Origin: Chloroflexota bacterium
Lineage (GTDB): Bacteria > Chloroflexota > Limnocylindria > QHBO01
Assembly (NCBI GenBank): GCA_038040195.1
Contig: JBBPIR010000001.1
Location: forward strand, 489,141-553,140
DNA: 64,000 nt
Reading direction: 5' to 3'
Shown here in pieces: positions 4,897-39,524 of the stretch. Position numbers and translations under genes: made by a program. The notes beneath the pieces were generated by a model that had not been told where the DNA came from, did no database searches, and was given only the letters and a program-made list of their open reading frames with translations. Numbering within the stretch: position 1 is the stretch's first letter; the number at the start of each line of letters is the position of its first letter.

Positions 4897-5745
4897 ATGA
4901 CCTTCGAGCCAGGCGCGCGCCTCGACCCCGGGCAGGTCCGTGACGTGCGAGGCAAGGGAGGCGTGCTGGCGGTCGGGGGTGGCATCGGCGGCGTGATTCT
5001 GCTGGTTCTCTTTGTCGCGCTGGGCGGCGACCCGTCCCAGCTGCCGCCGGGGCTGCTCGAGGGCCAGACGGTCGGCACCGGCCAAGAGAGTGACCTGACG
5101 GAGGAATGCCAGACGGGGGCGGATGCCAACCTGCGCGACGACTGCCGCATCGTCGGCTACGTGAACAGCGTCCAGGCCTACTGGACTGAGGCCGTGGACG
5201 GCTATACCCCGGCCCTGACCACGTTCTTCACCCAGGCGGTCAACACGGGCTGCGGCACGGCCTCGAGCGCGGTCGGCCCCTTCTACTGCCCGCCTGACGA
5301 GAGCGTCTACATCGACCTCGGCTTCTTCGACCAGCTGGAGACCCGCTTCGGCGCCGAAGGTGGGCCCTTCGCCGAGGCGTACGTCATCGCGCACGAGTAC
5401 GGCCACCATATCCAGAACCTGCTCGGGGACCTCCAGCCTGGCGGAGGAACGGGTGCCGAGAGCCATGCGGTGCGCACCGAGCTCCAGGCCGACTGCTACG
5501 CGGGGGTGTGGGCCAGCAATGCGGTTGAAACGGGCTACCTGGAGCCGATCACGCCTGAGCAGGTCGCCCAGGCGCTCGACGCCGCCTCAGCCATCGGCGA
5601 CGATCGGATCCAGGAGCAGACGCAGGGACAGGTGAACCCCGAGACCTGGACGCACGGCTCGTCCGAGCAGCGTCAGGCGTGGTTCCGCGTCGGGCTCGAC
5701 AGCGGCGACCCGAACGACTGCGACACGTTCAGCGCCGACATCTAA
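4897..5745 (+). CDS. Neutral zinc metallopeptidase (YpfJ-like), membrane anchored
   Basis: HEYGHHIQ zinc motif and an N-terminal TM helix. I chose the ATG at 4897 ([14 protein letters not shown]...) rather than the upstream ORF start at 4807. Confidence 0.8.
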
Positions 5746-5809
5746 CTGAGTAGCCGCCCTCGACCGATGAGCAGAAGGCCCTGCTCGTCGAGCGCTTCCG
5801 GCAGTGGGT

Positions 5810-6805
5810 TCAGCCGCTCGCCGCCGCCGAGGCCGCGGAGGCTCCGAACGTCAACCCGCGCTCCAAGCCGGCCTGCACGACCTGATAGGCGATGAGGAGT
5901 TGCGTGAGCGCCAGCGGGTCGGAGTGCCGCTCCACGCTGCCGTCGAGGTAACTGCCGATCTCCCCGGGACGGAGGTGACGATGCGTCTCCATGTGCGCCC
6001 AGATTCGCTCATCGAGCTCGAGAGAGCGTGAGGGCGAAACCGCTCCGTCGATCTCCAGGATGGAAGCGCCCGTAGCGTCCGCCTCCTGCTCGAGGCGAAT
6101 CGGGGGTGGCTCGTCCGCGGCGGCGCTCGCCAACACGTCGCCGAGGTCGAGCCGAGGAAGCCCAGGGCCGAGCCTGAGACGCACGTTCAGATGGGCGTCG
6201 TGATCGACGGCGGTTCCGGCCCGGAAATAGCCGGCCGGTGGGTAGAACTGGACGAGCATATCGGCGTACGCGCGCTGGGGTGCGAGGTACCGCCGATGGT
6301 CATCGCGCCTGTCGACGATCTGGCGGATGACTTCCGGCACGCTGTATCCGCGCTCCGCGCAGTCCCGCTTAACCTTCCAGGCCCACTTCAGCTCCTCCTG
6401 CGGCTGCAGCCACACGCGAACATCAAACGCGTTTCGCAGGTTCGCGGTCATCAGCGGAAAGAGGCCGCGGATGACGACGATCTCGCGCGGCTCGACATCC
6501 TCGCGCTGGCCGAAGGTCCCCGTCGAGTGGTCATAAGTTGGCTTCGAGATGGTCTCGCCGCGTGCAACAGCGGCGACCTGTCGCGCCATGAGCTCAATGT
6601 CGTTCGCGGCCGGGTTGAGGGCGGTCACGCCGAGCCGCTTGCGCTCTGCTCGGTCCAGCTTGTGGTAATCGTCGAGGCACAGGTTGGTGATCCGCTCCGC
6701 GCCGAAGATCCGATACAGGCCCCTGACCAGCGTCGTCTTGCCGCTGCCGCTGTCGCCTCCCACGGCCACCATGATCGGGCGATGGAAGTTCGTCGCCGCC
6801 ATCAA
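5810..6805 (-). CDS. prk: Phosphoribulokinase (class II / cyanobacterial-archaeal type)
   Basis: 331 aa. P-loop VAVGGDSGSGKTTL, plus DDYHKLDR, KPTYDHSTG and KWAWKVKRDCAERGYS patterns of PRK. The start codon abuts the rbcL stop with no gap. Confidence 0.85.
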   Translation of the reverse strand: MMAATNFHRPIMVAVGGDSGSGKTTLVRGLYRIFGAERITNLCLDDYHKLDRAERKRLGVTALNPAANDIELMARQVAAVARGETISKPTYDHSTGTFGQREDVEPREIVVIRGLFPLMTANLRNAFDVRVWLQPQEELKWAWKVKRDCAERGYSVPEVIRQIVDRRDDHRRYLAPQRAYADMLVQFYPPAGYFRAGTAVDHDAHLNVRLRLGPGLPRLDLGDVLASAAADEPPPIRLEQEADATGASILEIDGAVSPSRSLELDERIWAHMETHRHLRPGEIGSYLDGSVERHSDPLALTQLLIAYQVVQAGLERGLTFGASAASAAASG

Positions 6806-8143
6806 TCAGAACCTCACGCCCGACCACAGGTCGAGCGCCTGGCGCAATTCGGGGCAGGTACGCGCCGCGTGCGCGAGCGTCTGCCCGGCGGCCACCGCCT
6901 CCACCGCAACCCGCGCGGCGGTGGCACCGGCCCGGCTGCCGCCCGGATGGCCGTGCACGCCTCCACCGAACAGGAAGAAGGCGTCCGTCCCGAAGACCTC
7001 GTCGAGCTGGGGAACGTGGCCCGGGTGCAACCCGCCTGAGGCGACGGGAACCAGGGGCTTGAGCTCGCCCCAGGCCTGGTCGAACAGCGTCCCACCCCCG
7101 GCCGGCGCGAACGCGGCGGTCATCATTCGACGCCGCTCGCCCATCTCCTGGATGGTTCCCTCCAGCTTCCCGACCCCGGTGCCGACGTGGACGTGGTCCG
7201 CGCCCATCAGCCGCGCCCACTTGGCGATGACCAAGAAGTCCACGCCGTGGTCGGGGTGGCGATCCATCACCGCATGCATCGCCCGATGCGCGTGCAGCGC
7301 CAGGCCCAGCCGCTCGGTCTCCGCACGCAGCGACGCAGTCGCCGCGAAACCCGCCGTCAGGAAGTCGACCATCACGAACCGGCCGCCCTCGTCGGCCACC
7401 AGGTTGGCGCGGCGAAGCATCTCGCTGGTCTCGGCGGCGGTGACGTTGGCCCAATAGCCCTTGCGCTCCCCGGTCTCGGCCTCCGCGCGTTGCACGAGCT
7501 CCAGTGTCCGCCGGATGCGCTCGTCGAACGGCGACCAAGCCTGACTGTTCAGGTTCTCGTCGTCCTTGACGGTGTCGATCCCGCCCCGCAGCGTCTCGTA
7601 GGCGCGCCGCGCATGCTCGGCGGGCGAGAGCCCCAGTTTGGGTTTGATGGTAGATCCGGTCATCGCCCGGCCATGAACGTTCAGCTTCTCCCGGACGCCG
7701 GAGATGCCGAACGCAGGCCCTGGGAACGATTCGACCAGGGGTAGGGGGATACGCATGTCGAGCAGGCGAAGCGCGCTCACCGCCTTGAACCCAAAAACGT
7801 TGCCCACCACGCTGGACAGGATGTTGGGGATGCTGCCGAACTCGAACAGGTCAATCGGGTACGCGATCAAGGCGACGTCGGCGGCGATCCGGTACACCCG
7901 CGCCCGGAGCTGGTAGGCCAGGCCCTCGTCATCCTCGCTCACCTCGGTCCAGGTCCCCGTCGAGGACTCGGCCGCCACCGCCGCCGCGGCCTCCTCCATC
8001 GAGGTGTCCTCACGCGGGGCGAGCTTGAACGCAACCAGCAAGTCAGTCGCGGCGGGAACGTAGTCGAGGGCCAGATACAGCTCTTGGTACGAATGAACCC
8101 CACTGGTCCGCTCAGGTCCCGTCTGCGTTGAAGGCTGGGTCAT
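6806..8143 (-). CDS. rbcL: Ribulose-1,5-bisphosphate carboxylase/oxygenase large subunit (bona fide, not RLP); form III-like or form I-prime-like
   Basis: 445 aa. All catalytic motifs are present: ESSTGTW, GNVFGFK, IKPKLG, GGIDTVKDDEN (carbamylated Lys), HAHRAMH, HVHVGT, GKLEG, SGGLHPG and FGGGVHGHP. No small-subunit gene is adjacent. Confidence 0.9.
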   Translation of the reverse strand: MTQPSTQTGPERTSGVHSYQELYLALDYVPAATDLLVAFKLAPREDTSMEEAAAAVAAESSTGTWTEVSEDDEGLAYQLRARVYRIAADVALIAYPIDLFEFGSIPNILSSVVGNVFGFKAVSALRLLDMRIPLPLVESFPGPAFGISGVREKLNVHGRAMTGSTIKPKLGLSPAEHARRAYETLRGGIDTVKDDENLNSQAWSPFDERIRRTLELVQRAEAETGERKGYWANVTAAETSEMLRRANLVADEGGRFVMVDFLTAGFAATASLRAETERLGLALHAHRAMHAVMDRHPDHGVDFLVIAKWARLMGADHVHVGTGVGKLEGTIQEMGERRRMMTAAFAPAGGGTLFDQAWGELKPLVPVASGGLHPGHVPQLDEVFGTDAFFLFGGGVHGHPGGSRAGATAARVAVEAVAAGQTLAHAARTCPELRQALDLWSGVRF

Positions 8144-8413
8144 GGCACCGTGGCTCCCTCTTCGCTTCCCATCTCAGGCCTCCCTACACCTCCGCGGCCG
8201 CGTTGAATTATGGTCAGCCTGAGTGCCCTCGGCAGGTTCGAACAGGGCCGTTCGTACCGAAAACGCCCCGGCAACGAACCTTCGCGACACAGGATCAGCC
8301 GCACCGGCAGCCGTTGTCCAACCGCGCCGGCTCCGGTGGTGAGCGTCAACAGGGGCTCTGACCGAACAAACGGTCGAGGTCAAAGCCTTCTGGCCTGGCT
8401 TCGTGCTCGATGT

Positions 8414-8459
8414 TGGAGCCGAAGGTGGGATTCGAACCCACGACCGACGGTTTACGAAA
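8414..8459 (-). repeat. Truncated tRNA-Thr copy (3-prime 46 nt: anticodon loop to CCA), att-like direct repeat
   Basis: 46/46 nt identical to 16385-16430 of the intact tRNA-Thr. Beyond the anticodon loop the sequence (ATGCG...) cannot pair as an anticodon stem, and no D-arm or acceptor 5-prime strand is present. Confidence 0.85.
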
Positions 8460-8724
8460 TGCGGCCAGCTCCGTCCACTGGCGTCGTGTCATGCTCACTG
8501 AGAGTGGACGCCGCAGAATTGCCGTCCGCCGAAATCCGCAGGTAGCGCTCCCGTCCATCCCGTGGGGCGTCAGCAGGGGCGTCACCCGCTAGATGCAGCC
8601 CTGGAAACGTTGTCCAGGGCCTCGGCTGGGGCCGGCGGGACGAGAACTCCAGTCGGGCAACTGCGGGGAGTCTACGGGCGCCTTAAGGCGGGTGCCAGTT
8701 GGTGAGTGGGGTAGTAGACATAGC

Positions 8725-8768
8725 GGTCCGAAGTTGCCGGTAGCGCGGTATTGGTCAGAAGTTGCCGG
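8725..8768 (+). repeat. Two copies of the 16-mer GGTCNGAAGTTGCCGG
   Basis: GGTCCGAAGTTGCCGG at 8725-8740 and GGTCAGAAGTTGCCGG at 8753-8768. A third copy lies at 12679-12694. Confidence 0.6.
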
Positions 8769-8832
8769 CGCAGTCCGAGTCGCGCCACTCTCAGCGAGGA
8801 AGCTGGTACAGGATCCTGCCTCCGGGCAACGG

Positions 8833-10152
8833 TCAGGATGGTGGGTCCGGGGGTGCCGTCCGCACTGAGCCATCCGCCTCGTCGATGATGACCTCGAGCA
8901 TGGACCAGGCAACGCGGAGGGCCATCTCCACCGCAGCTGGACTCGCGGCCCGGGCGAACAGGAAGCCGAGGTACCGGTCACCTTCGGGGAGCGGAACGAG
9001 CGCCTCCCCGCGCGGGATCGTGATCGACAGGCCGTCGATGTTGGGGACGGCCCGGGCGGCCGACTGACCGCGAACCTCGCGAAGCCGCCCGGCGTGCCGG
9101 ATCGGGAGCATGAGGACGCCCGACGCGGACCGCTCGCGGTGGTGGGGCGGCAGGTCGAGGCCGGCGGCGTGGCGGAGGATGAGCTCCTCCAGGCTGACGC
9201 CGGCGCCGAATCGAAGGGTCCGAGCGCACAGCCCGCCGATCGAGCGAGCGGCGACCTCGAGGACCCACGCCCCCTCGTCGTTCAGGCGGACCTCGGCGTG
9301 GATCGGGCCTTCGCGAAGGCCGAGCGCCCGAGTGGCCAAGGCGGCGGTCGCCTCAACCTCGCGTCGTCGCTTCGGGGAGAGGCGCGACGGGGTAACGAAG
9401 AGAGTCTCTTCGAAGAACGGTCCGTCGAGCGGGTCGGGCTTGTCGAAGACCGCGAGGACCTCGAGCTCACCGGCGCGGAGCAGGCCTTCGATCGCCAACT
9501 CGACACCGGGAATGAAGTCCTCGACCAGGATCCCGGGGACGCGCGCAGGTTTGGCGGGCGCCGCGGGCTTGCCGACCGTGGCGGCGGTGGCGGCGGTCTC
9601 ATCGCAACCGAGGATTCGGGCAACCCGCCGGAAGGCGGCAACCAGCTCGGCCGGGTCGTTCGCCCGGATGACGCCCTGGCTCCCCGACCGATCGAGTGGC
9701 TTCACGACGCACGGGTAGCGGGTATCGGCCGCGAGCGCAGCGAGGGCGGCCGGGCCTGACGTGGCCGGATACGTTGCAAATCGTGGGGTCGGCAGACCGG
9801 CGGCCGCGAACGCCGTGCGGGCGTGCGCCTTGTCACGGCTCCGCTCGACCGCGGCCACCGAGTTGTGCGGCAGGCCGAGCCGTTCGGCTGCCGCGGCGGC
9901 CACTAGGGTCGACCCGTCGTCGACGCCGACGACGGCATCGAGCCGACGTTCGCGGGCGTACCGCTCGATCGTCGCGGCGCCCCGCTCGGCATCGTCGAGC
10001 TGGACACGGATCGTCCCAGCCCCGGCCACCGACTCGAGCACGTTCCGTCGCTCCGCCCCGACCACCACGTCCACCCCGAGCCGATCCGCAGCGGCGAGGA
10101 AGTCGGCCGTACGGTAGGTCCGCGTCGGGAGGAGCAGGAGGATCCGGGTCAT
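8833..10152 (-). CDS. ATP-grasp domain protein (carboxylate-amine ligase-like)
   Basis: 439 aa. YPCVVKPLDRSGSQGV, ILVEDFIPGVELAIEG and FEETLFVTPS patterns of the ATP-grasp fold. Confidence 0.75.
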   Translation of the reverse strand: MTRILLLLPTRTYRTADFLAAADRLGVDVVVGAERRNVLESVAGAGTIRVQLDDAERGAATIERYARERRLDAVVGVDDGSTLVAAAAAERLGLPHNSVAAVERSRDKAHARTAFAAAGLPTPRFATYPATSGPAALAALAADTRYPCVVKPLDRSGSQGVIRANDPAELVAAFRRVARILGCDETAATAATVGKPAAPAKPARVPGILVEDFIPGVELAIEGLLRAGELEVLAVFDKPDPLDGPFFEETLFVTPSRLSPKRRREVEATAALATRALGLREGPIHAEVRLNDEGAWVLEVAARSIGGLCARTLRFGAGVSLEELILRHAAGLDLPPHHRERSASGVLMLPIRHAGRLREVRGQSAARAVPNIDGLSITIPRGEALVPLPEGDRYLGFLFARAASPAAVEMALRVAWSMLEVIIDEADGSVRTAPPDPPS

Positions 10153-10187
10153 GGCCGAATTCTGCGCCAGTTGTACGATTCAGCGAA

Positions 10188-10775
10188 ATGGACGCCCCGC
10201 TCCTGCTCATCACACGCGAGGCGCAGGCCAAGGTCGCGGCGGCCGCCAGGAGCGCCGGCTACCCCGACGCCCGGCTTCGCGTGGCGATTGCCGGTCGGCG
10301 CGGAGCGAGCTTCGCATATGACCTCTCTCTGGTTCGGCCGGACCGGGTCGACCCGGCGGACCTCGTCGTCGAGACCCCGCTCGGCGTCGTCTATGTCGCG
10401 GCTGCCGATGCCGAGCGACTGCGCGGCGCCACGATCGGCCTGGACGCCACCGTATCCGGCGGGGCGATCGCGATCGACAACCCGAACGTCGGCTGGACCG
10501 ATCCACTCGCCGTGCGGGTCCAGGAGGTACTCGACACGCAGGTCAATCCCGGCGTTGCCGCCCACGGCGGCTACATCGACCTCCTCGAGGTCCGGGACGG
10601 GACGGCCTACATCTCGATGGGCGGTGGATGCGTCGGCTGTGCCCAGGTGGACGTCACCCTCCGTCAAGGGGTGGAGGTTGCTATCAAGCGGTCCGTTCCC
10701 GAGATCGTCGCTATCGTCGACACCACCGACCACGCGTCGGGCACCAATCCCTACTACCAGTCCGCCAAGAAGTAG
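10188..10775 (+). CDS. Nfu-type Fe-S cluster carrier (IscA/HesB-like N-domain + NifU C-domain)
   Basis: NifU C-domain pattern VNPGVAAHGGYIDLLEV...GGGCVGCAQVDVTL with CxxC. The ATG at 10188 was chosen because the longer ORF from 9696 translates as Arg/Pro-rich junk. Confidence 0.75.
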   Translation: MDAPLLLITREAQAKVAAAARSAGYPDARLRVAIAGRRGASFAYDLSLVRPDRVDPADLVVETPLGVVYVAAADAERLRGATIGLDATVSGGAIAIDNPNVGWTDPLAVRVQEVLDTQVNPGVAAHGGYIDLLEVRDGTAYISMGGGCVGCAQVDVTLRQGVEVAIKRSVPEIVAIVDTTDHASGTNPYYQSAKK

Positions 10776-10899
10776 GGATGAGCATCACGCACTTCCTCGA
10801 TGGCGACTAGCCGATTCGTGCGCGTTGACACTGTCGTGGGATTGACCGTGACGACATGATTGCGCCCGGCACGGCCGGCCTCGGAGAGCTGGCGACCGT

Positions 10900-12654
10900 A
10901 TGAGCCCCAGACCAGAGAGCCGCACGCGCCCGTGCAACGTCCTGGTCATCGGGACCGGCGGGGCCGGCCTCAGAGCTGCGATTGCGGCCCGCCAGGCCGG
11001 TGTCGACGTGGTGGTCATCGGCAAGCGGAGCCGACTGGATGCCCATACCGTGCTCGCCGCCGGCGGTATCAACGCGGCGCTTGGCACCGTCGACCCGGAG
11101 GACTCATGGCAGCAGCATTTCGCCGACACCATGCGAGAGGGCTATTACCTGAGCGACCCGCGCGTCGTCGAGATCATGACCAGCGAGGCACCGCTGGCAA
11201 TCAATGAGCTCGCTGAGTGGGGCTGCCCATTCGCGCGCACCGACGACGGCAAGCTTGACCAACGCTACTTCGGCGCCCACACGTTTCGGCGCACGTGCTA
11301 CGCCGGGGACTACACCGGGCGAGCCGTCCTGTCTACCCTGGCCGAACAGGTGCAGAAGCTCGATATCCCGGTGATCGAAGACCAGTACGTCTCGCGCCTG
11401 CTCACCGCCGACAGCCAGTGCTTTGGTGCGCTTGCCTTCGATCTCCACACCGGGGATCGCACGGTCTTTGAGGCCGACGCAGTCGTCCTGTGCGGCGGCG
11501 GGCATACGCGCATCTGGCGTCGCAGCTCGTCGCGGCGCGACGAGAACTACGGCGAGGGCATGTGGCTGGCCTTCCAGGCCGGGGCGCGCCTGATGGACAT
11601 GGAGCTCGTCCAGTTCCATCCCACCGGGATGCTGCTGCCGGAGGAGGCCGCCGGCACGCTGGTCACCGAGGCCGTGCGCGGCGAAGGCGGGCGACTGTAC
11701 AACGCCGAAGGCGAGCGCTTCATGCAGCGCTACGACCCCCAGCGGATGGAGCTGAGCAGCCGCGACCGCATCGCCCTGGCCAACTACACCGAGATCCAGG
11801 AAGGCCGGGGCGGCCCCAACGGCGGCGTCTTCCTCGACGTGACCCACCTGGGCAAGGACGTGATCCTGGAAAAGCTGCCGCGGATGTACCGCCAGTTCGT
11901 GGAGTATCAGATGCTCGACATTGCCAAAGAGCCCATGGAGGTCGCGCCCACGGCGCACTACTCGATGGGCGGGATCGTGGTCGATCCGCCGACCCACGCC
12001 ACCGACGTTGGCGGACTGTACGCCGCCGGCGAATGCACGGCGGGACTGCACGGTGCCAACCGGCTGGGTGGCAACTCGCTGGTGGAGACTCTGGTGTTCG
12101 GTCGGCGCGCCGGTGAGGCAGCGGCGCGATCTTCGCTGGAGCGCGAATCGCGGCTTCGCTCCAAACAAGTCACCGACGAGGCACACGCCGACCTCGACAG
12201 GCTGATCGACAACGGTACCGAGCTCAGCCGGGCCCTGCAGCGCGCGGTCCGCAACATCATGTGGGAGCACTGCGGCGTGGTGCGCGAAGCCAGCGACATG
12301 GAGCGGGCACTCGGCATGCTGGACGAGGTCCGCTCAGCGCTGCCGAGCGTCGACGTGCGCCCCAGCGAAGAGGGATGGGGCGACCTGGCCCACGTCCTCG
12401 ACGTCCAGGCCATGCTGGGCACCGCCGAAGCCACCCTGCGGGGGGCGATCGCGCGCGAAGAGAGCCGTGGTGCGCACAACCGTTCGGACTTCCCGGAGCT
12501 GGATCCGGCGATGGAGGTCAATTTCATCGTCGGGCGCGGCAGTGACGCCCGGATGGCGCTGGAACCCGCACCCGTTCCGGCGGTCTCCGTGGAGCTCCGA
12601 TCGTGGCTCGCGCGAGCGGGGAATATCGACCCCGCGGGGCGGCTTCTAGAATGA
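10900..12654 (+). CDS. SdhA/FrdA/NadB-family FAD flavoprotein, orphan (no Fe-S or membrane partner genes adjacent)
   Basis: 584 aa. VLVIGTGGAGLRAAI, AHTVLAAGG, VQFHPTG, TEAVRGEGG, AHYSMGG and GANRLGGNSL motifs. Confidence 0.8.
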   Translation: MSPRPESRTRPCNVLVIGTGGAGLRAAIAARQAGVDVVVIGKRSRLDAHTVLAAGGINAALGTVDPEDSWQQHFADTMREGYYLSDPRVVEIMTSEAPLAINELAEWGCPFARTDDGKLDQRYFGAHTFRRTCYAGDYTGRAVLSTLAEQVQKLDIPVIEDQYVSRLLTADSQCFGALAFDLHTGDRTVFEADAVVLCGGGHTRIWRRSSSRRDENYGEGMWLAFQAGARLMDMELVQFHPTGMLLPEEAAGTLVTEAVRGEGGRLYNAEGERFMQRYDPQRMELSSRDRIALANYTEIQEGRGGPNGGVFLDVTHLGKDVILEKLPRMYRQFVEYQMLDIAKEPMEVAPTAHYSMGGIVVDPPTHATDVGGLYAAGECTAGLHGANRLGGNSLVETLVFGRRAGEAAARSSLERESRLRSKQVTDEAHADLDRLIDNGTELSRALQRAVRNIMWEHCGVVREASDMERALGMLDEVRSALPSVDVRPSEEGWGDLAHVLDVQAMLGTAEATLRGAIAREESRGAHNRSDFPELDPAMEVNFIVGRGSDARMALEPAPVPAVSVELRSWLARAGNIDPAGRLLE

Positions 12655-12678
12655 CGCGCTCGCGTAGGTAGATAGAGC

Positions 12679-12694
12679 GGTCCGAAGTTACCGG
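12679..12694 (+). repeat. Third copy of the GGTCNGAAGTTRCCGG motif, upstream of the GH130 gene
   Basis: GGTCCGAAGTTACCGG. With its flank it shares 18/19 nt with 8722-8740. Here CGAAGT/ACTTCG also form a 6-bp hairpin. The motif is followed by TAGACT at 12725-12730 and the ATG at 12739. Confidence 0.6.
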
Positions 12695-12738
12695 ACTTCG
12701 TCGAACCCGCCGACCGAGCCGGTCTAGACTCACTGCCA

Positions 12739-13710
12739 ATGTCCTCCGGCCGCGCCCTTTTCACGCGCTTTCCCGGTAATCCGATCATTCGTGCAGCCGA
12801 CCTTCCCTACGACGCGAACGCGGTCTTCAACCCGGGCGCAGCCGAGGTCAACGGTGAGACCGTCCTTCTCCTTCGCGTGGAGGACCTCCGCGGCATCAGC
12901 CACCTCACCGTTGCCCGCAGCCGGGACGGGGTCAGCGACTGGCGAATCAACAGTGAGCCGAGCTTGCGCTCCGCCCCGGTGCGGTACCCGGAGGAGGTGT
13001 GGGGCATCGAGGATCCGCGGCTGACGTGGCTTGAGGAGATGCAGGCCTGGGTGATCGCCTACACCGCCTACAGCCGGCGCGGCCCGCTCGTCTCCTTTGC
13101 ACGCACGGCCGACTTCCGATCCTTCCGGAGGTTTGGCGCGGCGCTTCTGCCGGAGGACAAGGACGCCGCCCTGTTTCCGCGGCGATTCGGCGGCCGATGG
13201 GCGGTCATCCACCGTCCGACGCCGGTGCACGGGAACGCGAGCATGTGGATCTCCTATTCGCCCGACCTACGCCACTGGGGCGATTTCAGCCTGCTCCTCG
13301 AGCCACGCGAGGGCGCGTGGTGGGACTCGGCCAAGATCGGGCTGGGACCCCCGCCGCTGGAGACCCCCGAGGGCTGGTTGGTCATGTACCACGGTAGTCA
13401 TCTCACGGCCAGCGGCGCCCTGTACCGGACTGGGCTCGCCCTGCTCGATCTCGAGGACCCCAGGACCGTCCTGCGACGCAGCGACGAATGGGTGATCGGG
13501 CCGACTGAGCCCTATGAGCGGGTCGGCGACGTGGGCGGCGTCGTCTTCCCGTGCGGCTGGGTGCTGCATCGGGCGACCAACGAGCTCCGCGTGTACTACG
13601 GCGCAGCCGATACGTCCGTCGCGCTCGCCACCGCGCGCCTGGACGATGTGCTCGAGTACCTGCGCAGCTCCCCCCGGCCGACGCCGCAGAGGCGCCGGGT
13701 GCGCCTCTAG
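12739..13710 (+). CDS. GH130 family glycoside hydrolase/phosphorylase (beta-mannoside-type)
   Basis: 323 aa. NPGAAEVNGETVLLLRVED, GIEDPRLTW, AYTAYS and DKDAALFPRRFGGRW patterns of GH130. Confidence 0.8.
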   Translation: MSSGRALFTRFPGNPIIRAADLPYDANAVFNPGAAEVNGETVLLLRVEDLRGISHLTVARSRDGVSDWRINSEPSLRSAPVRYPEEVWGIEDPRLTWLEEMQAWVIAYTAYSRRGPLVSFARTADFRSFRRFGAALLPEDKDAALFPRRFGGRWAVIHRPTPVHGNASMWISYSPDLRHWGDFSLLLEPREGAWWDSAKIGLGPPPLETPEGWLVMYHGSHLTASGALYRTGLALLDLEDPRTVLRRSDEWVIGPTEPYERVGDVGGVVFPCGWVLHRATNELRVYYGAADTSVALATARLDDVLEYLRSSPRPTPQRRRVRL

Positions 13711-16040
13711 CGGGCGACCTTCACGGCCGCCTGCAGGCCACGCAGGCTAGCGGGTGCCTGCCGAACCTCGCGGATCCGTTCCACGGCCAGCAGCCACGCG
13801 AGCGTCGACTCGGCGCCGCAGTTCGCGTTCACCCCATACGGACCCAGCCCGTCGTGGCAGGCTCCGGCCTGCGGGACGGCCAACGCCAGCCCGAGATGAT
13901 TCTCGCCGAGGAACCACGCGTAGGCGCGCTCCATGTCGTCCAGCCAGCGGGCATCACCGGTCACGATCAGGGCAGCGCGAGCGGCCTCCAGCAGCGACGT
14001 CGCTTCGATCGGCTGCTGGTCGAAGGACGCCGGGCGCCCACCACGGGGCCACCAGCCGCGGTTCCCGATGGGGACCAGGTGTCCGTCGGCGTCCGTCTGC
14101 GCGGCGAGCAGCCAGTCCAGCAGGCGGGCGCCGAGCTCGACCCAGCGGTCCTGGTTCAGCAAGTCGCCGGCGCTGAGGAGCGCCTGCGGCAGGGTCCCGT
14201 TGTCGTAGGTCACCGTCGCCTCTGGCCATGGCCAATCGGCAGTTGCAGGCGGGATGGATGCCGCCAGCGTTGTGGTGAGGCTCGCGAGCGATTGCCGCAG
14301 CGCTGGGCTCCCCGCAGAACGCAGGGCGGCCGCGCAGCCTAGGATCGCGTAGCAGCGTGGCCGGAGGTGAGCGAAGGCCAGCGCAGCCGGCAGGGCGGTG
14401 GTGAAGAGCTTCGACGCCAGGCGACGCGCCACATGGTCGTCGGAGCGGGCCAGGAACTCCCCGAGCGCCTGCAACGCGCGGCCGTGGCAGTCCTCGGAGC
14501 CGATCCGTTCAAGCCACACACCATCGGCACTCCGGAGGTTCCGGAAGCGTCCCGCCGCTGGGTCATAGGCGTCATCCAGAAAGCGCAGCGATCGGTGAAT
14601 CGAGGCCGTCACCGCTGGCCCTGGAGCCTGCTCCGCGTGGAGCAGATCCACCACCAGGGCACGCGCCACGTCATCGGTGCAGGTGCCGTGGCGCGGATCG
14701 GCAGTTTCGCCAATCGCATGCTGCCAGATCCCGCGCCCGGTCCCCAGGCGGGAAAGATGATGCCGTTCGATCCGCGGGAGGACCCGCGCCGGCAGAGTCT
14801 TGGCGGTGACGCGACCGTCAGACCGGGCGGCCTCTGGCCCGATCATCTGGACCGGTCGCAGCGCATGGCGCGCTTCGCCGGCCACCTGGGAGAAGATTGC
14901 CCGGTAGCCGTCGCCGACGGCGTCCCAACTCATGTCGGCGGCCAGCGCGCGTGCGCGGTTCCCGATTTTCTGCCGCTCAACGGGATGGGTGAGGAGCGCG
15001 AACAGCCGGTCGGCGAGCGCCTCGACGTCGTCGAATGGAAACAGGACCCCGCGGCCGTCGGCGAGGAGCTCCCGCGCGTACTCGTAGGGTGTCGAGATGC
15101 ACGCTCGACCGGCGGCCACGGCATATGCCAGCGTCCCCGAGGCAGCCTGCTCGGCGTTCCCGTACGGGGTGACGAAGAGGTCCGCGGCCTGCAGCCAGGC
15201 CACCAGCTCGTTGTCATCGACGTAGCGATCCACGAACAGGAGGTGACGCTCGAGGCCGAGCGCCTGCGCCCGCGCAGCGAGGGCAGCGCGATAGCGTTCC
15301 CCGTTTCGGAGCCGCACCTCTGGGTGCGTGGCACCGACGATCGCGAATCGAGTCTGTGGGACACGATCGCGGATTCTGGCGAGGGCATCGATCACCAATT
15401 CGAGGCGCTTGGCTGGACCAAGCAGGCCGAACGAAAGGATGAGAGGCCCTTCTGGCAAGCCGAGGCGGGCCCGTGCCTCGGCTGGGTCGACTATCTCGAT
15501 CTGCGGTACGCCGTGGGGAATGACCTGCAATGCATCGGACGGGGCCTCGTATTCGGTGCTGAGCAGGTGCCGCGCACGTTCGCTCATTACCACGACACGC
15601 GCCGATCGCCGCACCAGCTCGACGAGGATGGCGCGCTGGAGCGGTGTGGGATGGGGGCGGACCGTGTGCAGGGTGGTGACGAGGGGCACCCGCAACGCCG
15701 CCGCGAGCCCGAGGACGTGACGGCCGGATGGGCCACCGAATATGCCGTACTCGTGCTGGAGCGAGACGACCTCGGTACCAGCGACGGCCAGGTGGGCGGC
15801 GGCGGCGACATACGCCTCGGCGTCGGAGCGCTTCAGGCGGAAGGTGACCTCGGGCGGATACCGGGGCGGGTCCCGGCGGCCGCGGTCTACCGCGACCACC
15901 AGCGGTGTGCGCGCGCCCGGCGGTGTGAGATCTACCAGTGCGTCGCGCAGGTCACGCGTGAAGGTGGCGATCCCGCAACGCCGAGGCGGATAGGTCCCTA
16001 CCAAGGCCAGGGCCGGAAGGTCCTGCCACGTCGCGGTCAT
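13707..16040 (-). CDS. GT4 glycosyltransferase fused to a ~390-aa C-terminal domain of unknown function
   Basis: The N-terminal ~390 aa are GT-B/GT4-like (LALVGTYPPRRCGIATFTRDL, EQAASGTLAYAVAAG). The C-terminal half is helical and Trp-rich. The ATG at 16040 has GGAGGTGAGG upstream. The stop overlaps the GH130 stop as a CTAG palindrome. Confidence 0.8.
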   Translation of the reverse strand: MTATWQDLPALALVGTYPPRRCGIATFTRDLRDALVDLTPPGARTPLVVAVDRGRRDPPRYPPEVTFRLKRSDAEAYVAAAAHLAVAGTEVVSLQHEYGIFGGPSGRHVLGLAAALRVPLVTTLHTVRPHPTPLQRAILVELVRRSARVVVMSERARHLLSTEYEAPSDALQVIPHGVPQIEIVDPAEARARLGLPEGPLILSFGLLGPAKRLELVIDALARIRDRVPQTRFAIVGATHPEVRLRNGERYRAALAARAQALGLERHLLFVDRYVDDNELVAWLQAADLFVTPYGNAEQAASGTLAYAVAAGRACISTPYEYARELLADGRGVLFPFDDVEALADRLFALLTHPVERQKIGNRARALAADMSWDAVGDGYRAIFSQVAGEARHALRPVQMIGPEAARSDGRVTAKTLPARVLPRIERHHLSRLGTGRGIWQHAIGETADPRHGTCTDDVARALVVDLLHAEQAPGPAVTASIHRSLRFLDDAYDPAAGRFRNLRSADGVWLERIGSEDCHGRALQALGEFLARSDDHVARRLASKLFTTALPAALAFAHLRPRCYAILGCAAALRSAGSPALRQSLASLTTTLAASIPPATADWPWPEATVTYDNGTLPQALLSAGDLLNQDRWVELGARLLDWLLAAQTDADGHLVPIGNRGWWPRGGRPASFDQQPIEATSLLEAARAALIVTGDARWLDDMERAYAWFLGENHLGLALAVPQAGACHDGLGPYGVNANCGAESTLAWLLAVERIREVRQAPASLRGLQAAVKVAR

Positions 16041-16384
16041 CCTCACCTCCCGGCGCGGGCACAGCAGGTGTCGCGGATGGAGCGACGCCATGCCCGGCCC
16101 TGATGGCTGCGACGACCACGTGCATCAGCAGAGATCGTGGACCTGAGCAGCGGGGTCCGGATCTGCGAACACGCGTCGCGGCTGCACGTGCTCATGGAGC
16201 TGCGCAACTTGAGCGGGCCCCGTCGCGGGGCCTCGTGGTAGCACCCGATGGTATCGCCGGCGGTGGCCGCGGGTCAAATCGCCGCATTCGCGGCGAGCCG
16301 GCGTTCAGGTCGCAGCCGGGGCGTCAAACCGAACAGACGATCGCGCCTCCGATTCGTGAGCGGGGCAACTTCGTGCTCAGAAGA

Positions 16385-16459
16385 CTGGAGCCGAAGGTGG
16401 GATTCGAACCCACGACCGACGGTTTACGAAACCGTTGCTCTACCCCTGAGCTACTTCGG
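16385..16459 (-). tRNA. tRNA-Thr (anticodon CGU), CCA encoded
   Basis: 75 nt, hand-folded cloverleaf. Acceptor GCCGAAG/CTTCGGC, anticodon stem ACGGT/ACCGT with loop TTCGTAA, T-arm GTGGGTTCGAATCCCAC, 3-prime TCCA. Confidence 0.9.
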
Positions 16460-17339
16460 CCCGATCGCCGGCCGATTTTAGCGCCTCTCCCTTTGCGCTC
16501 CCCAACCTGACCGAGGGCGGCGCCCAGCCGTGGAGCAGCTCGTCGTGGTAGCGCGGCCCGCGCTCCAGCGAACGGGGAATGGGGGCCATCCGCGCCTTTC
16601 CGCGCTGGACCAGGGCGAAGTACGGGCACAGGTCGGTGAGCGGGCACAGGCCGCAGATGGGGCGCGGGGCGCGGCACACCTCCCGCCCGTGGCGTATGAG
16701 CAGCACGTGCCCGGCGTACATGGCCTCGGGCGGCACCACTTCCTCCAGCAGGTCGTGGGCCCGGGTCAGGTCGGTCTTGGGCGGGAGCAGGCCCAGCCGG
16801 GAGGCGACTCGATAGACGTGGGTGTCGACCGGCAGCGCGGGCCGGCCGAACGCGAACAGGAGCACGATCGATGCCGTCTTGCGCCCAATCCCGGGCAGGC
16901 CCACCAGCCACTCGCGGGCCCGCTCGAGCGGCCACTCCCGCAGGTACCCGAGGTCCCAGGTCCCGTTCGTGGCGTCGTGGACCTCGGCCAGAACGAGCTG
17001 GATGCGGCGGGACTTGGTTGGGGCCAGCCCGCCGGGCCGGATGACGTCTGCCAGTTCGTCGGTCGGCGCAGCCAGCACGGCGTCCCACGACGGGTAGGCA
17101 GCCCGCAGGGCCACGAAGGCGCGGTGCGAATTCGTGTCGGCCGTGTTCTGGGCCAGCACGGTCAGGACCAGCTCCGCGACGGGGTCCAGCCGCGGACCGG
17201 ACCAGACCGGCATTCCGTATCGGTCAGCCAGGCGTTCCAGGATGGGACGGATGCGCGCGCGCCGCACGCGGCGCAGCGCGGCCAGCCGGCGGCGGTTGAC
17301 CCGCGATCGCACCCTGCGAGGTCGTGCGGCGTCCGTCAC
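16440..17339 (-). CDS. nth: Endonuclease III family DNA glycosylase (HhH-GPD with 4Fe-4S loop)
   Basis: HhH LPGIGRKTASIVLLFAFG, PVDTHVYRV, and Fe-S loop CRAPRPICGLCPLTDLC. The GTG start at 17339 forms a GTGA overlap with the upstream gene. The 3-prime 20 nt overlap the tRNA-Thr. Confidence 0.75.
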   Translation of the reverse strand: MTDAARPRRVRSRVNRRRLAALRRVRRARIRPILERLADRYGMPVWSGPRLDPVAELVLTVLAQNTADTNSHRAFVALRAAYPSWDAVLAAPTDELADVIRPGGLAPTKSRRIQLVLAEVHDATNGTWDLGYLREWPLERAREWLVGLPGIGRKTASIVLLFAFGRPALPVDTHVYRVASRLGLLPPKTDLTRAHDLLEEVVPPEAMYAGHVLLIRHGREVCRAPRPICGLCPLTDLCPYFALVQRGKARMAPIPRSLERGPRYHDELLHGWAPPSVRLGSAKGEALKSAGDRAEVAQG

Positions 17340-17624: not shown

Positions 17625-18800
17625 TTAGCCTCGGCTCCCCAATCCCTGACCGATGTCGATGCTGCGCGCCAACCGGGCAGCCGCATTGGCCAGCAGGCGT
17701 TCGGTGTCGGCCATGGCGATTTCCAGGCCGAGTGGTCGATCGATGATGGGCTGCACCACGGCGAACGCCCCCGACTCCTCGACGATCTCGGCGCCTGGGC
17801 CCAGGCCGCCGCACAGCAGGACGACCGGGGCATTGCCGGCATGATGGGCCACCCCCAGCGCCGCCTTGCCGGCCAGGGTCTGCTCGTCGGCCCGCCCCTC
17901 CCCGGTGATGACCAGGTCCGCCCCCTCGCAGGCCGCCGCCAGGCCCACCAGGTCGGCCACGACCTCCACGCCGGAGCGCAGCTCGGCGGAGGTGAAGCCC
18001 AGCAGCCCGGCCGTTGTCCCGCCGGCCGCGCCGGCGCCTCGGACCTCCGCCACGTCGCGACCCGTCGCTCGTCGGATCTCGGCTCCCCAGCGCACCAGGG
18101 CCTCGTCCAGCTCGGCGACGGCGTCGGGGTCCGCGCCCTTCTGCGGCCCGTAGCTCGCGGCTGCGCCGTTCGGCCCGGTCAGGGGGTTGGTGACGTCGGA
18201 AGCGATCAGGATCTCGACCTCGGCCAGCCGCGGATCGAGCCCGTCGGCGTCGACGTGGTCCAACGTCGCCAGGGCCGCGCCGCCGTCCGGCACCTGGCCC
18301 CCGCGGGCGTCGAGCAGCCGGAGCCCCATCTCGACCAGCAGCCCCGCCCCGCCATCGGTGGTGGCCGATCCGCCAAGGCCAACCACGATCCGTCCCGTGC
18401 CGGCATCCAGCGCCGCCGCGATGAGCCGTCCCGACCCCCGGGTCGTGGCCAACCGAGCACTGGTCGACGTCCGCTCCGCCAAGGCCAGCCGCGCCAGCCC
18501 GCTGGCCGCCGCCATCTCCACGAACCCCGTTGCACCGCCGTCGAGCGCCAGCCAGTCCGCGCTGATCGGCCGGCCCAGGGGATCGGTCGTCATCACCGTG
18601 TTCCGGGTGGCCGCGCTTCCCCGAGCTGCGGCGATCGCGGCCAGGGTCCCCTCGCCCCCGTCCGCCATCGGGATCTTCACCACCACATCGTCGGGCCGCG
18701 CCGAGGCCCAGCCGCGGGCCATGGCCTCGGCGACCGCCACCGAGTCCAGCGCACCCCCGAACGAGTCGGGAGCCACGACCACGCGCAGCGGCGGGCTCAT
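17625..18800 (-). CDS. glxK: Glycerate kinase (GlxK/GarK family)
   Basis: 391 aa. VVVAPDSFGG, MADGGEGT, ITGEGRADEQTLAGKA patterns. Confidence 0.85.
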   Translation of the reverse strand: MSPPLRVVVAPDSFGGALDSVAVAEAMARGWASARPDDVVVKIPMADGGEGTLAAIAAARGSAATRNTVMTTDPLGRPISADWLALDGGATGFVEMAAASGLARLALAERTSTSARLATTRGSGRLIAAALDAGTGRIVVGLGGSATTDGGAGLLVEMGLRLLDARGGQVPDGGAALATLDHVDADGLDPRLAEVEILIASDVTNPLTGPNGAAASYGPQKGADPDAVAELDEALVRWGAEIRRATGRDVAEVRGAGAAGGTTAGLLGFTSAELRSGVEVVADLVGLAAACEGADLVITGEGRADEQTLAGKAALGVAHHAGNAPVVLLCGGLGPGAEIVEESGAFAVVQPIIDRPLGLEIAMADTERLLANAAARLARSIDIGQGLGSRG

Positions 18801-20707
18801 CGGGAAAGCTCCTTGCGCCTCGCGAGGTAGGCGGGGATCGTGTTCATCGGCGGTCGAATCTCGTCCCCCACCTCGCGGACCTCCAGGCTGAATTTGTCAC
18901 CTTCCTGGCGGATCTGCTTCATCCGCTCGCCCATGTCGGTCAGCAGCTCAATCCGCTGACGCTCCTCCAGCTTGGTGATCCCGGCCTTGAGGATGACAAA
19001 GGCCATCCGCGACAGGTCCAGCAGCGACTGGTTGCGATGGATGCGGCGCTCGAGGTCGACCTGCCCGATGCCGGACAGGCCGACGCGGTCCAGGATGTCG
19101 ATGAGCAGCCCGATCTCGACCGCGTAGCCGGTGAAGAACGGCACCGACTCGAGGAGCGCGCGACGCCCCGCGTACTCCCCGGCCAGGGGTTGGATGATGC
19201 CGGACAGCTCGGGGAAGAACAGGTTGATGAGCGGGCGAGCGGTCAGCTCTGTCACCCGTCCGCCCTCGTCGGGCTGGCGCCGCCCGCCAGCCGTCAGGGG
19301 CCGTTGGTAGAAGGCCTTCACGTAGTGGATCCGCGACTCGCGCAGGAGCGGGCCCAGCAGGCCGTACACGAAGCGAGGCTGGATGTTGCGGATGTCGGTG
19401 TCGACCCAGACCACGATGTCCCCGCGCAGCTCGTACAGGCTCTTCCACAGCGCTTCGCCCTTGCCGACGTGGCTCCCCAGCTCCGGGAGGATGGTGTCGT
19501 GCTGGCGGACGGGTGCCCCCAGCTCGCGGGCGATCTCCACCGTTCGGTCGGTGGAGGCCGAGTCGATGACGAGCAGCTCGTCCACCAACGGCACGCGGTC
19601 CATGAGCGCATCGCGAATGCGACGGATGACCAGCCCGATGGTCTTCTCTTCGTTCAGGGTCGGTAGTCCCACGCTGATGGTCAGGCCCTGGCGCTCCTTG
19701 AGGTCCACCAGGCGCTTGAGGTCGCGAAATTCGCTGGTGTCGAACGTGTTCTCGGCAAACCAGCGGTCGACCACGCTCGGCAGGCTGCGGGTCTGCTCGA
19801 TGGCGGCGTCCGCGGCGGGCAGGCTTCCGGTCTCGGCCCGGAGATGTTCGAAGGTGACTGCGGTGAACGGTTGTCGGGTCTTGACCACCATCACGGTTGG
19901 CTTGGCGCGGCTGGCGACTGTCTCCGCCAGCCGCCCGAACAGGCGCCGGCCCGATCCGGCTCCGGTCGGCTGGGCAGAGGCCCCGACCACAACCAGGTCG
20001 TGGTTCGCGGCCTCTTGCAGGATGGCGCCCCGAACGGTCGGCGCCTCCACCAGCAGCTGGCGGACCTTGACCCCTCGGGTATTACGCCTGACCAGGCGGC
20101 CAAGCGCCGCCCGCTCGTCCTCGAGCGCGGCCGAGCCACCCTCGGGCGGGACCACGTGCAGAACGACCAGCTCAGCGCCGAAGCCGCGCGCCAGGTCGGT
20201 GGCCAGCGAGAGCGCCAGCTCGGCATTCGGACCTCCCCGAACCGGGACCAGGATGGAGCGGACGGTTCCCAGTGCGCGCTGCTTGACCACGGCGATATCG
20301 CATGGGGCCTCACGGACGACCTGGTCAATGGTGGTCGAGAAGACCGCGTGCCGCAGGCCGGTCGGTTGGGGGCCGCCCCAGCCGAAGACCACCAGGTCGG
20401 CCCCGATCTCGGCCACCGCCTCCACGATCCCCTCCGACGCCTGGCGGCCGATGCGGACCGCGGTATGGACCTCGACCGACGCGTCGTCCCGGAAGTCAGG
20501 CACCCGCTGGAGCAGGCGGCGGGCCTGGCGCGCGCGGCTGGCGCCCTCCGCCAGCGACACGCCCTCGGGGACCTCGACGATGCCCAGCGCGGTGATCTCG
20601 GTGGGCCGCCGGTGGGCGAGGTGGGAACCGATGCGGATCAGGTCGCGCGCGGTGCGCGGGTTGGCCAGCGGCATGAGGACCCGATACGGACCACGCCGGC
20701 GGGCCAT
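18797..20707 (-). CDS. gpgS: Tandem universal-stress-protein domains fused to glucosyl-3-phosphoglycerate synthase (GT81)
   Basis: 636 aa. The N-terminal ~300 aa have two Usp-like repeats (DLVVFGWGG, DLVVVGAS). The C-terminal ~320 aa align motif by motif with mycobacterial GpgS as I recall it (PTLNEE, GKGEALW, DTD, GGRVTEL, QPLAGEY, GYAVEIGLLID). Confidence 0.8.
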   Translation of the reverse strand: MARRRGPYRVLMPLANPRTARDLIRIGSHLAHRRPTEITALGIVEVPEGVSLAEGASRARQARRLLQRVPDFRDDASVEVHTAVRIGRQASEGIVEAVAEIGADLVVFGWGGPQPTGLRHAVFSTTIDQVVREAPCDIAVVKQRALGTVRSILVPVRGGPNAELALSLATDLARGFGAELVVLHVVPPEGGSAALEDERAALGRLVRRNTRGVKVRQLLVEAPTVRGAILQEAANHDLVVVGASAQPTGAGSGRRLFGRLAETVASRAKPTVMVVKTRQPFTAVTFEHLRAETGSLPAADAAIEQTRSLPSVVDRWFAENTFDTSEFRDLKRLVDLKERQGLTISVGLPTLNEEKTIGLVIRRIRDALMDRVPLVDELLVIDSASTDRTVEIARELGAPVRQHDTILPELGSHVGKGEALWKSLYELRGDIVVWVDTDIRNIQPRFVYGLLGPLLRESRIHYVKAFYQRPLTAGGRRQPDEGGRVTELTARPLINLFFPELSGIIQPLAGEYAGRRALLESVPFFTGYAVEIGLLIDILDRVGLSGIGQVDLERRIHRNQSLLDLSRMAFVILKAGITKLEERQRIELLTDMGERMKQIRQEGDKFSLEVREVGDEIRPPMNTIPAYLARRKELSR

Positions 20708-35649: not shown

Positions 35650-36009
35650 ATGGACCAGACCGGGCTGCTCTACGTCCTGGGATTCGGCTTCGCCGCCACG
35701 ACGTTCGTGTTCGGCACGATTCTGTTCTCGTGGCTGATCACGCATCGGCGCAAAGAGGCCCAGAAGGGGCTGCCCTACGAGTGCGGGATCGACACCATCG
35801 GTGACACCTGGTCCCGCTTCGGGCTGGCGTTCTACCTGTACGCCCTGCTGTTCGTGGCCTTCGACGTGGAGATCATCTTCATCTACCTCTGGGCGATCGT
35901 GATTCGCGACCTCACGCTCACCGGCATGATCCTGATGGGGATCTTCCTGGTGGTCCTGATGTACGGCGAGTTCTACGCCTGGAAGAAGGGTGACCTGAAA
36001 TGGCGATAA
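35650..36009 (+). CDS. nuoA: NADH-quinone oxidoreductase subunit A
   Basis: 119 aa, 3 TM helices, PYECG motif. Confidence 0.9.
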
Positions 36010-38484: not shown

Positions 38485-38493
38485 GGGGCCGAA

Positions 38494-39513: not shown

Positions 39514-39524
39514 TGGCCTGACAC

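Follow-up and report, generated by a model that had tools for sequence, protein, structure and literature searches.

A two-gene rbcL-prk unit encoding a RuBisCO of probable form Iα type and a phosphoribulokinase in a Chloroflexota genome

The 64,000-nucleotide stretch of Chloroflexota DNA analysed here (assembly GCA_038040195.1, contig JBBPIR010000001.1; hereafter the window) carries a two-gene operon that encodes the large subunit of ribulose-1,5-bisphosphate (RuBP) carboxylase/oxygenase (RuBisCO) and a phosphoribulokinase (PRK), both on the minus strand. A first-pass annotation, made from the letters of the sequence, had located an rbcL-prk cassette at these positions, and both open reading frames (ORFs) were confirmed by Pfam. 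The first gene, rbcL (6806-8143, minus strand), encodes a protein of 445 residues that matches the Pfam families RuBisCO_large_N (E 5e-39) and RuBisCO_large (E 2e-97), is identical to NCBI entry MEK6191180.1, encoded on a contig of 807,896 bp, and is found unchanged in three Logan assemblies. The second gene, prk (5810-6802, minus strand), starts at position 6802 and encodes a 330-residue protein identical to NCBI entry MEK6191179.1; a longer mechanical ORF (5810-6805, minus strand) begins at a TTG and matches the Pfam PRK/uridine-kinase family with an E value of 1e-41. The junction between the genes reads ...GTGAGGTTC TGA TTG ATG GCG..., so that the zero intergenic nucleotides described in the first-pass annotation hold for the alternative TTG start at 6805, whereas a gap of 3 nucleotides precedes the annotated ATG. 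Direct reading of the sequence revealed a GAGG motif 10-13 nucleotides 5' of the prk ATG and, because this motif sits inside the 3' end of rbcL, translation of prk is likely to be coupled to that of rbcL. Frame analysis based on the G+C content of third codon positions (GC3) supports both genes within a window of ~70% GC, and their GC3 values of 0.84-0.87 are in keeping with the rest of the window.

Upstream of rbcL lies a non-coding region of 270 nucleotides (8144-8413, minus strand), the presumed promoter site of the operon. No LysR/cbbR gene was identified in this region, where the ORFs have no Pfam match, and a scan of positions 5600-8900 for sigma-70 promoters and terminators yielded nothing that exceeds shuffled expectation. 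Pfam scans of the called genes and candidate ORFs over the 64 kb identified no gene for the small subunit (rbcS, PF00101), cbbX, cbbQ/O, LysR/cbbR, carboxysome components or sugar-phosphate cycle enzymes. In tblastn searches with three rbcS queries, taken from loci of canonical form I, no window match had an E value below 6.5, and no rbcS was found in the loci of eight close relatives (L004-L008 and L039-L041); as a positive control, rbcS was recovered in each canonical locus, where it follows rbcL directly, with E values of 1e-62 to 1e-82. The earlier statement that rbcS, cbbX and other cycle genes are lacking in the window is thus borne out by the Pfam scans and, for rbcS, also by tblastn.

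To place the active site, spinach numbering was assigned to the window RuBisCO from the motif anchors AAESSTGTWT, GNVFGF, STIKPK, VKDDEN, HAHRAMHA, DHVHVGTGVGKLEG, VASGGLH and FGGGVHGH. All 21 positions checked are intact, and comprise E60, T65, W66, N123, T173, K175, K177, K201, D203, E204, H294, R295, H298, H327, K334, L335, S379, G380, G381, G403 and G404. The full set is kept in 20 of the 21 sequences examined from the clade to which the protein belongs (see below). As the residues for RuBP binding, carbamylation and catalysis are all present, the protein is, judged by its sequence, a bona fide RuBisCO, and a form IV RuBisCO-like protein, which the first-pass annotation had also dismissed on account of the intact catalytic motifs, is ruled out.

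The same annotation had described the protein as archaeal form III-like from its GLHPG and GGGVHGHPGG motifs. [quoted passage not shown] However, all three features are equally present in the Bathyarchaeia clade and in clan-2, described below; because they are common to all form Iα-type sequences, they are best read as retained ancestral states and are no evidence of form III membership. At positions 173 and 335 the window RuBisCO displays the form I residues Thr and Leu, where form III sequences have Ile and Met. The protein scores 560 bits against the NCBIfam form I-type large-subunit model NF003252 (cut-off 438), while its score against the form III equivalog TIGR03326 is 485.6, under the cut-off of 497.45. 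Ranking against the PDB placed reconstructed form I ancestors at the top (PDB code 7QSV etc.; 557 bits), with lower scores for 8U66 (524 bits), form I' (PDB code 6URA; 487 bits), canonical form I (about 400 bits) and the P. horikoshii form III enzyme (PDB code 2CWX; 349 bits). Form I', which was not included in the tree presented below, thus scores lower than the form I'' and ancestral structures. The 8U66 protein is ~88% identical to the Armatimonadota sequence P0119, and presumably represents the form I'' structure from Liu et al. 2023 (Curr Biol 33:5316), a study that reportedly treats form Iα as well.

Relatives of the window RuBisCO were sought by scanning one genome per GTDB species, with a best match of 90% identity. 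The closest sequences derive from Chloroflexota metagenome-assembled genomes (MAGs), one of them labelled Candidatus Limnocylindria (L004-L008; 80-90% identity), and more distant ones from Bathyarchaeia (L009-L015 and L038; 64-67%), from Anaerolineae together with Desulfobacterales/Deltaproteobacteria MAGs (L016-L026; 56-62%), from canonical form I of a Rhodospirillales MAG and Ectothiorhodospira (L027-L034; 45-48%) and from archaeal form III (L035-L037; 41-47%). Eighty-four sequences were aligned with MAFFT, 432 columns were retained and neighbour-joining trees were calculated with 100 bootstraps. Over these 432 columns the window RuBisCO is 74-97% identical to members of its own clade, 64% to Bathyarchaeia, 60% to form I'' and the reconstructed ancestors, 59% to the Anaerolineae/Desulfobacterales group, 48% to canonical form I and 44% to form III. 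The window clade (21 sequences) and the Bathyarchaeia clade each received a bootstrap value of 100. The two clades join at 48, and at 58 when sequence P0069 is included, and this assemblage groups with forms I, I'' and their relatives at 84. The latter grouping leaves out a deeper group that contains L022 (the contig encoding MBC8333483) and Dissulfurimicrobium. No bootstrap support was obtained in this 84-sequence tree for a grouping of the window clade with form III. A sequence from RBG_16_70_13, a Rifle sediment RIF-CHLX/Chloroflexi genome taken from a published supplement, falls inside the window clade; in the protein database, sequences of this clade form more than 40 clusters when grouped at 90% identity. 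Membership of form III is ruled out by the TIGR03326 score, the 41-47% identity and the position of the protein within a form I-related radiation. A second copy of canonical form I is ruled out for the window by the lack of rbcS, of the insertion and of the extension, together with the identity of 48%.

These properties coincide with those of a RuBisCO type described from Chloroflexota of soils and aquifers. Form Iα was named from genomes of the Eulabeiota (RIF-CHLX/Limnocylindria/Ellin6529) recovered from Rifle aquifer and sediment, in which rbcS is absent genome-wide, rbcL adjoins prkB and cbbR, and the large subunit shares ~50% identity with form III and 48% with form I (West-Roberts et al. 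2021, 10.1101/2021.08.23.457424). In a later analysis, clan-1 of form Iα unites six earlier Chloroflexi sequences and, weakly joined, one from Bathyarchaeota, and has forms I, I' and I'' as its sister group, while clan-2 (MBC8333483 and Dissulfurimicrobium) lies outside (Bamba et al. 2026, 10.64898/2026.09.21.753380); the neighbour-joining topology obtained here agrees with this clan-1/clan-2 topology. Like the window copy, published form Iα genes belong to Chloroflexota hosts of ~70% GC, are not accompanied by rbcS and have prk directly downstream, and their products display ~48% identity to form I and ~44-50% to form III, branch below forms I and I'' and are weakly joined to a Bathyarchaeota sister sequence. 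Because topology, host lineage, identity values and rbcL-prk context agree with the published descriptions, the window RuBisCO is most plausibly a form Iα enzyme of clan-1 type. The window copy differs from the published ones in that no other Calvin-Benson-Bassham (CBB) gene adjoins it and in its position beside a tRNA-Thr site with a later 8-kb insertion. An rbcL-prk pair without rbcS, considered unusual in the first-pass annotation, is the context by which form Iα was originally defined, in the same lineage (10.1101/2021.08.23.457424), and the aside in that annotation on small-subunit-less form I relatives from Chloroflexota proved to be the correct lead. The operon is therefore a further case of the already published association of form Iα RuBisCO with PRK, and confirms and slightly extends the published work.

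Comparison with other RuBisCOs that operate without a small subunit further delimits this assignment. The form I' enzyme of 'Candidatus Promineofilum breve' (PDB code 6URA; Banda et al. 2020) also derives from Chloroflexota, lacks a small subunit, is encoded with prk and was shown to fix CO2. It forms an L8 octamer, in contrast with the dimer reported or predicted for form Iα (10.64898/2026.09.21.753380), and its host belongs to a different class, the Anaerolineae. Form I'' (PDB code 8U66; P0119) and the reconstructed ancestors (PDB code 7QSV; Schulz et al. 2022) likewise have no small subunit and are ~60% identical to the window RuBisCO, but belong to separate clades and are distinguished by the 12-residue insertion that precedes the C-terminal helices, the C-terminal extension and an SGGIHVWH motif, all three of which are missing from the window protein. 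Bathyarchaeia form Iα-type sequences (10.64898/2026.09.21.753380) are the closest relatives from outside the Chloroflexota, with 64-66% identity, the same length class and the same motifs. Archaeal form III enzymes (T. kodakarensis; P. horikoshii, PDB code 2CWX) resemble the window RuBisCO in being built from a single type of subunit, in their GGLHPG and GGG[VI]HGHP motifs and in lacking the form I insertion and extension, and form III systems paired with PRK, as in the window, do exist (methanogens, and the transaldolase-variant CBB cycle of Thermodesulfobium). Form III is set apart, however, by its identity of 41-47%, its separate clade and its Ile and Met residues at the positions of T173 and L335.

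The product of prk belongs to the cyanobacterial/plant-type PRK lineage. Over residues 4-311 of 330 it scores 323.6 bits against NF005655 (the cyanobacterial/plant-type, PRK07429-type model; cut-off 236), compared with 50.6 against the class I (proteobacterial) model NF011997, for which the cut-off is 362. The designation as a class II PRK in the first-pass annotation is thus broadly supported. Among solved structures, the closest over the full length are 9QKO, 9QKP and 9QKN, which were deposited under the names 'cyanobacteria specific phosphoribulokinase' and 'uridine kinase', while alignment to the canonical cyanobacterial PRKs 6GVE and 6HZK covers the N-terminal 180 residues. No paper describing the 9QKO, 9QKP and 9QKN entries was found in the literature library searched, and form Iα may be associated with PRKs of a little-studied, 9QKO-like lineage. 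The motifs CLDDYHxLDR and KxKRDxAERG are conserved and align with those of solved PRKs (6GVE, 9QKO); they presumably provide the catalytic Asp and the His and Arg residues for Ru5P binding that are known from work on Rhodobacter and plant PRKs. In plant-type PRK a Cys of the P-loop is the thioredoxin-regulated residue. The P-loop of the window PRK (GGDSGSGKTT) has a Ser where redox-regulated PRKs have this Cys, and thioredoxin-type redox control of the enzyme is therefore unlikely.

The pairing of the two genes is conserved in the clade. In all eight clade loci examined (L004-L008 and L039-L041) prk directly follows rbcL, with a gap of 2-39 nucleotides, whereas the surrounding genes are otherwise unrelated; a divergent LysR gene stands beside rbcL-prk only in L041. 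The conserved unit in the window clade is thus just rbcL and prk. More distant bacterial loci (L016-L024) also keep rbcL-prk wherever the contig runs past rbcL. The Bathyarchaeia loci present a different arrangement. PRK was found in none of nine loci (L009-L015, L038 and L042, which represent eight GTDB species representatives and one JGI metagenome contig), and one or two genes of the IF-2B family, which includes ribose-1,5-bisphosphate (R15P)-isomerase-like proteins, lie immediately upstream of rbcL in all nine. An IF-2B-family gene also accompanies the three form III loci (3/3), while no IF-2B/R15P-isomerase homologue was detected at E<1e-5 in the window or in the locus of any bacterial relative. 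The nine Bathyarchaeia loci extend the report of archaeal form Iα beyond a single MAG and argue against mis-assembly.

As a separate observation on the gene neighbourhoods, the rbcL-prk pair of L039 (GCA_040960765.1, contig JBFOMR010000015.1, 215-7208; 79% identical) lies near genes for DsrE, TusA and TauE and for a molybdopterin oxidoreductase with Fe-S/NrfD subunits. These neighbours may hint at a sulfur-based energy metabolism tied to CO2 fixation in the L039 genome.

The presence of PRK and the absence of an IF-2B gene at the bacterial loci argue strongly that RuBP in the window system would be supplied by PRK, in the manner of the Calvin cycle, and not by nucleotide salvage. The latter route, raised in the first-pass annotation, would lead from AMP phosphorylase through R15P isomerase to RuBisCO, as in archaea and bacteria of the candidate phyla radiation. 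It could draw on the form III-like motifs, on the missing insertion and extension, on a TIGR03326 score close to the cut-off (485.6 against 497), on the listing of a clade member as 'Form 3' (PMC12663927) and on the R15P-isomerase-like genes that adjoin rbcL in the Bathyarchaeia sister clade. Nevertheless, this score falls under the cut-off, identity to form III is 44% with no bootstrap support for a joint grouping, and the R15P-isomerase homologues present at 9/9 Bathyarchaeia and 3/3 form III loci have no counterpart in the window or at the bacterial loci, where a PRK encoded directly after rbcL, here and in every bacterial relative, supplies RuBP without salvage enzymes. A form III-type salvage role is therefore highly improbable.

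We propose, with a probability of roughly 85%, that rbcL and prk form a PRK-fed, Calvin-type carboxylation module of form Iα in a Chloroflexota host, in which housekeeping enzymes provide the rest of the cycle. PRK would phosphorylate ribulose-5-phosphate to RuBP, which the small-subunit-independent RuBisCO would carboxylate to two molecules of 3-phosphoglycerate. The remaining reactions (PGK, GAPDH, aldolase, FBPase, transketolase, epimerase and isomerase) would be drawn from gluconeogenesis and pentose-phosphate genes located elsewhere in the genome, which would explain why no other cbb genes lie nearby. PRK and RuBisCO catalyse the only reactions unique to the CBB cycle, and together with gluconeogenesis and the non-oxidative pentose-phosphate pathway they suffice to close it. 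A minimal cassette of this kind would for this reason be sufficient in principle and not anomalous. CO2 fixation has been reported for relatives of form I that have no small subunit (10.1101/2021.08.23.457424) and, by analogy, the window RuBisCO is expected to be an active carboxylase without a small subunit. A dimeric L2 assembly is also to be expected, again from comparison with other form Iα enzymes.

The flux through such a module could sustain full autotrophy or a mixotrophic shunt for CO2 recapture or redox balance. A shunt in a heterotroph or mixotroph, as opposed to autotrophic growth, would convert sugar-derived pentose phosphates to RuBP and carboxylate it, thereby recapturing respiratory CO2 or getting rid of surplus reductant, as happens in purple non-sulfur bacteria and in oilseed embryos; the two reactions are the same as those proposed above, and only their physiological role differs. 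We consider this possible but rather unlikely. It accords with a module of only two genes from which dedicated cbb genes, a carboxysome, cbbX/cbbQO and an adjacent regulator are missing, with flanking genes that differ wholly between clade members, and with a window in which an aerobic-type Complex I operon and genes for sugars and compatible solutes occur and no lithotrophy genes were found in the 64 kb. In addition, form Iα genomes were reported to hold only a 'partial CBB pathway' (10.1101/2021.08.23.457424). The authors who defined form Iα nevertheless concluded that it functions in the CBB cycle, and hydrogenase and CO dehydrogenase are common in the lineage (10.1101/2021.08.23.457424) and could lie beyond the 64 kb in view; the L039 operon, moreover, stands beside DsrE/TusA/molybdopterin-oxidoreductase genes.

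Several points weigh against a PRK-fed form Iα module as proposed here. The gene inventory covers 64 kb only, and the other cycle enzymes, an energy source, a second RuBisCO or rbcS could lie elsewhere in the genome. The tree was built by neighbour-joining only, from a set in which neither form I' (6URA) nor form II was represented, and the node that unites the window clade with Bathyarchaeia is weak (48-58%). The label 'Iα' rests on concordant topology, taxonomy and context and not on an alignment with the sequences labelled by the original authors, and the names of the deep sub-clades are still shifting (Iα, Iβ, Iγ, Iδ, I'''). Unlike both the founding form Iα genes and L041, the window operon has no adjacent cbbR. 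Finally, clade member RBG_16_CP_70_13_RBG_16_scaffold_22096_8 is filed as 'Form 3' in a kinetic survey (PMC12663927, PNAS 2025, supplementary file 4), with no rate value seen in its row; this filing reflects a common confusion between the labels form III and form Iα.

The genomic position of the operon was defined by comparison with L005, the closest GTDB genome, which is collinear with the window at 77-90% amino-acid identity. The gene order in L005 is mannosylglycerate-synthase-like protein, Usp-GT2, glycerate kinase, HhH-GPD glycosylase, tRNA-Thr(CGT), rbcL and prk, followed by a C26 amidotransferase (GATase), a dimethylglycine-dehydrogenase-like protein (DMGDH) and an APH-type kinase. Its intact tRNA-Thr(CGT) gene lies 105 nucleotides upstream of rbcL. 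In the window, the intact tRNA-Thr(CGT) gene (16386-16460, minus strand; identified by ARAGORN and scoring 73.5 bits against the Rfam tRNA model) marks the proximal boundary of an insertion, and the distal boundary is an att-like repeat (8414-8459, minus strand), a 46-nucleotide exact copy of the tRNA 3' half located 270 nucleotides upstream of rbcL, which corresponds to the tRNA-Thr remnant already observed next to the cassette in the first-pass annotation. The 3' half occurs in two copies only in the window (8414-8459 and 16386-16431), with 0 expected by chance and none beyond prk. Between the repeats, which are spaced by 7,972 bp, lies an islet (8460-16385) whose genes were identified by Pfam as an ATP-grasp ligase (8833-10152), an SdhA/TfrA-like flavoprotein (10900-12654), a GH130 protein (12739-13710) and a 794-residue GT4 protein (13707-16091). 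None of the four is present in the syntenic region of L005 (0/4), and no Pfam match to an integrase or a remnant of one was found in the islet. As L005 is collinear, with tRNA-Thr, rbcL and prk in succession and no islet, the 7,972-bp segment is an insertion into the tRNA-Thr gene that displaced the intact tRNA-Thr ~8 kb from rbcL, and the repeat at 8414-8459 marks the original tRNA position upstream of rbcL. The 270 nucleotides preceding rbcL cannot be aligned with L005.

The rbcL-prk unit therefore lies outside the islet, predates the insertion and is vertically resident at the tRNA-Thr site. The first-pass annotation had placed the cassette against the tRNA-Thr remnant at the islet boundary, from which it could follow that rbcL-prk is recently acquired horizontal cargo, foreign to the genome. 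The 270 nucleotides separating rbcL from the tRNA-Thr remnant would suit such an origin, as would the unrelated neighbourhoods of rbcL-prk across the clade, which imply that the module moved or that genomes rearranged over longer timescales. However, the cassette lies outside both 46-nucleotide direct repeats, no third copy of the tRNA 3' end occurs past prk, L005 has the collinear unit without the 8-kb insertion, and the GC and GC3 of the cassette are in line with those of its flanks. Recent acquisition is on these grounds very unlikely, and an origin of rbcL-prk as islet cargo is ruled out by the L005 synteny and the positions of the repeats.

Two further features of this region were observed. 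A direct repeat of 27 nucleotides, 89% identical and possibly due to chance, has both copies within the islet, one near its rbcL-proximal end (8714-8740) and one in the interval that separates the flavoprotein gene from the GH130 gene (12668-12694). The genes just past tRNA-Thr, at 17625-22185 (L005:3844-8371), encode a glycerate kinase, a Usp-GT2 fusion and a mannosylglycerate-synthase-like glycosyltransferase; their synteny with rbcL-prk holds in L005 and not in more distant clade members. They possibly constitute a glycerate-based compatible-solute cluster, and any metabolic connection with the 3-phosphoglycerate that RuBisCO produces would be speculative.

Form Iα enzymes serve to reconstruct the origin of form I (L8S8) from dimeric, small-subunit-less ancestors, and the operon described here provides a well-contextualised member, in which an rbcL-prk unit held vertically at a tRNA-Thr locus is seen on a long contig. 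With more than 40 clusters in the clade, small-subunit-less RuBisCO may add to dark CO2 fixation. The contrast between PRK in the bacteria and R15P isomerase in the archaeal sister clade offers a clean comparative handle on pathway rewiring, and this contrast, seen in nine Bathyarchaeia genomes, and the reconstruction of the ancestral site at tRNA-Thr are the most useful by-products of the analysis. A broader and doubtful extension of the proposal is that clan-1 form Iα has been wired to two routes of RuBP supply in two domains of life, being fed by PRK in soil Limnocylindria and by R15P isomerase in at least nine Bathyarchaeia, and that the bare two-gene module runs oxically in its Chloroflexota host. 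If so, an ancestral-like enzyme, with no small subunit and presumably low specificity, would work under oxic conditions in a host bearing Complex I, and the window clade would provide a natural test system both for how a RuBisCO that predates the small subunit copes with O2 and for the shift of a RuBisCO between salvage and a cycle of the Calvin type. Terminal oxidases are encoded in most genomes of the Eulabeiota/Limnocylindria lineage, in which the aerobic oxidation of gases such as CO and H2 is reported to be prevalent (10.1101/2021.08.23.457424).

The genome was previously thought to be Actinomycetota-like. The window RuBisCO (MEK6191180.1) nevertheless comes from a Chloroflexota MAG, its relatives are from Limnocylindria/Chloroflexota MAGs, and the host is probably a high-GC member of the Chloroflexota class Limnocylindria (also known as Ellin6529, RIF-CHLX or 'Eulabeiota'). 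Genes at 54107-59979 encode a CDP-alcohol phosphatidyltransferase, a myo-inositol-1-phosphate synthase, two lipid-A-type acyltransferases and a GT4 glycosyltransferase, a cluster resembling actinobacterial phosphatidylinositol-mannoside biosynthesis that may have been the source of the former attribution.

Elsewhere in the window, a Complex I operon extends from 35650 to 51516 and displays an unusual gene order. It begins with nuoA, B, C, D, H, an E-like gene and F, after which a 953-residue fusion protein (41253-44114), composed of 2Fe-2S, Fer4_20, Pyr_redox_2 and 4Fe-4S domains, occupies the place where nuoG and nuoI would be expected. The fusion is followed by genes for a PAS protein and a metallo-beta-lactamase-fold protein, and then by nuoJ, K, L, M and N.

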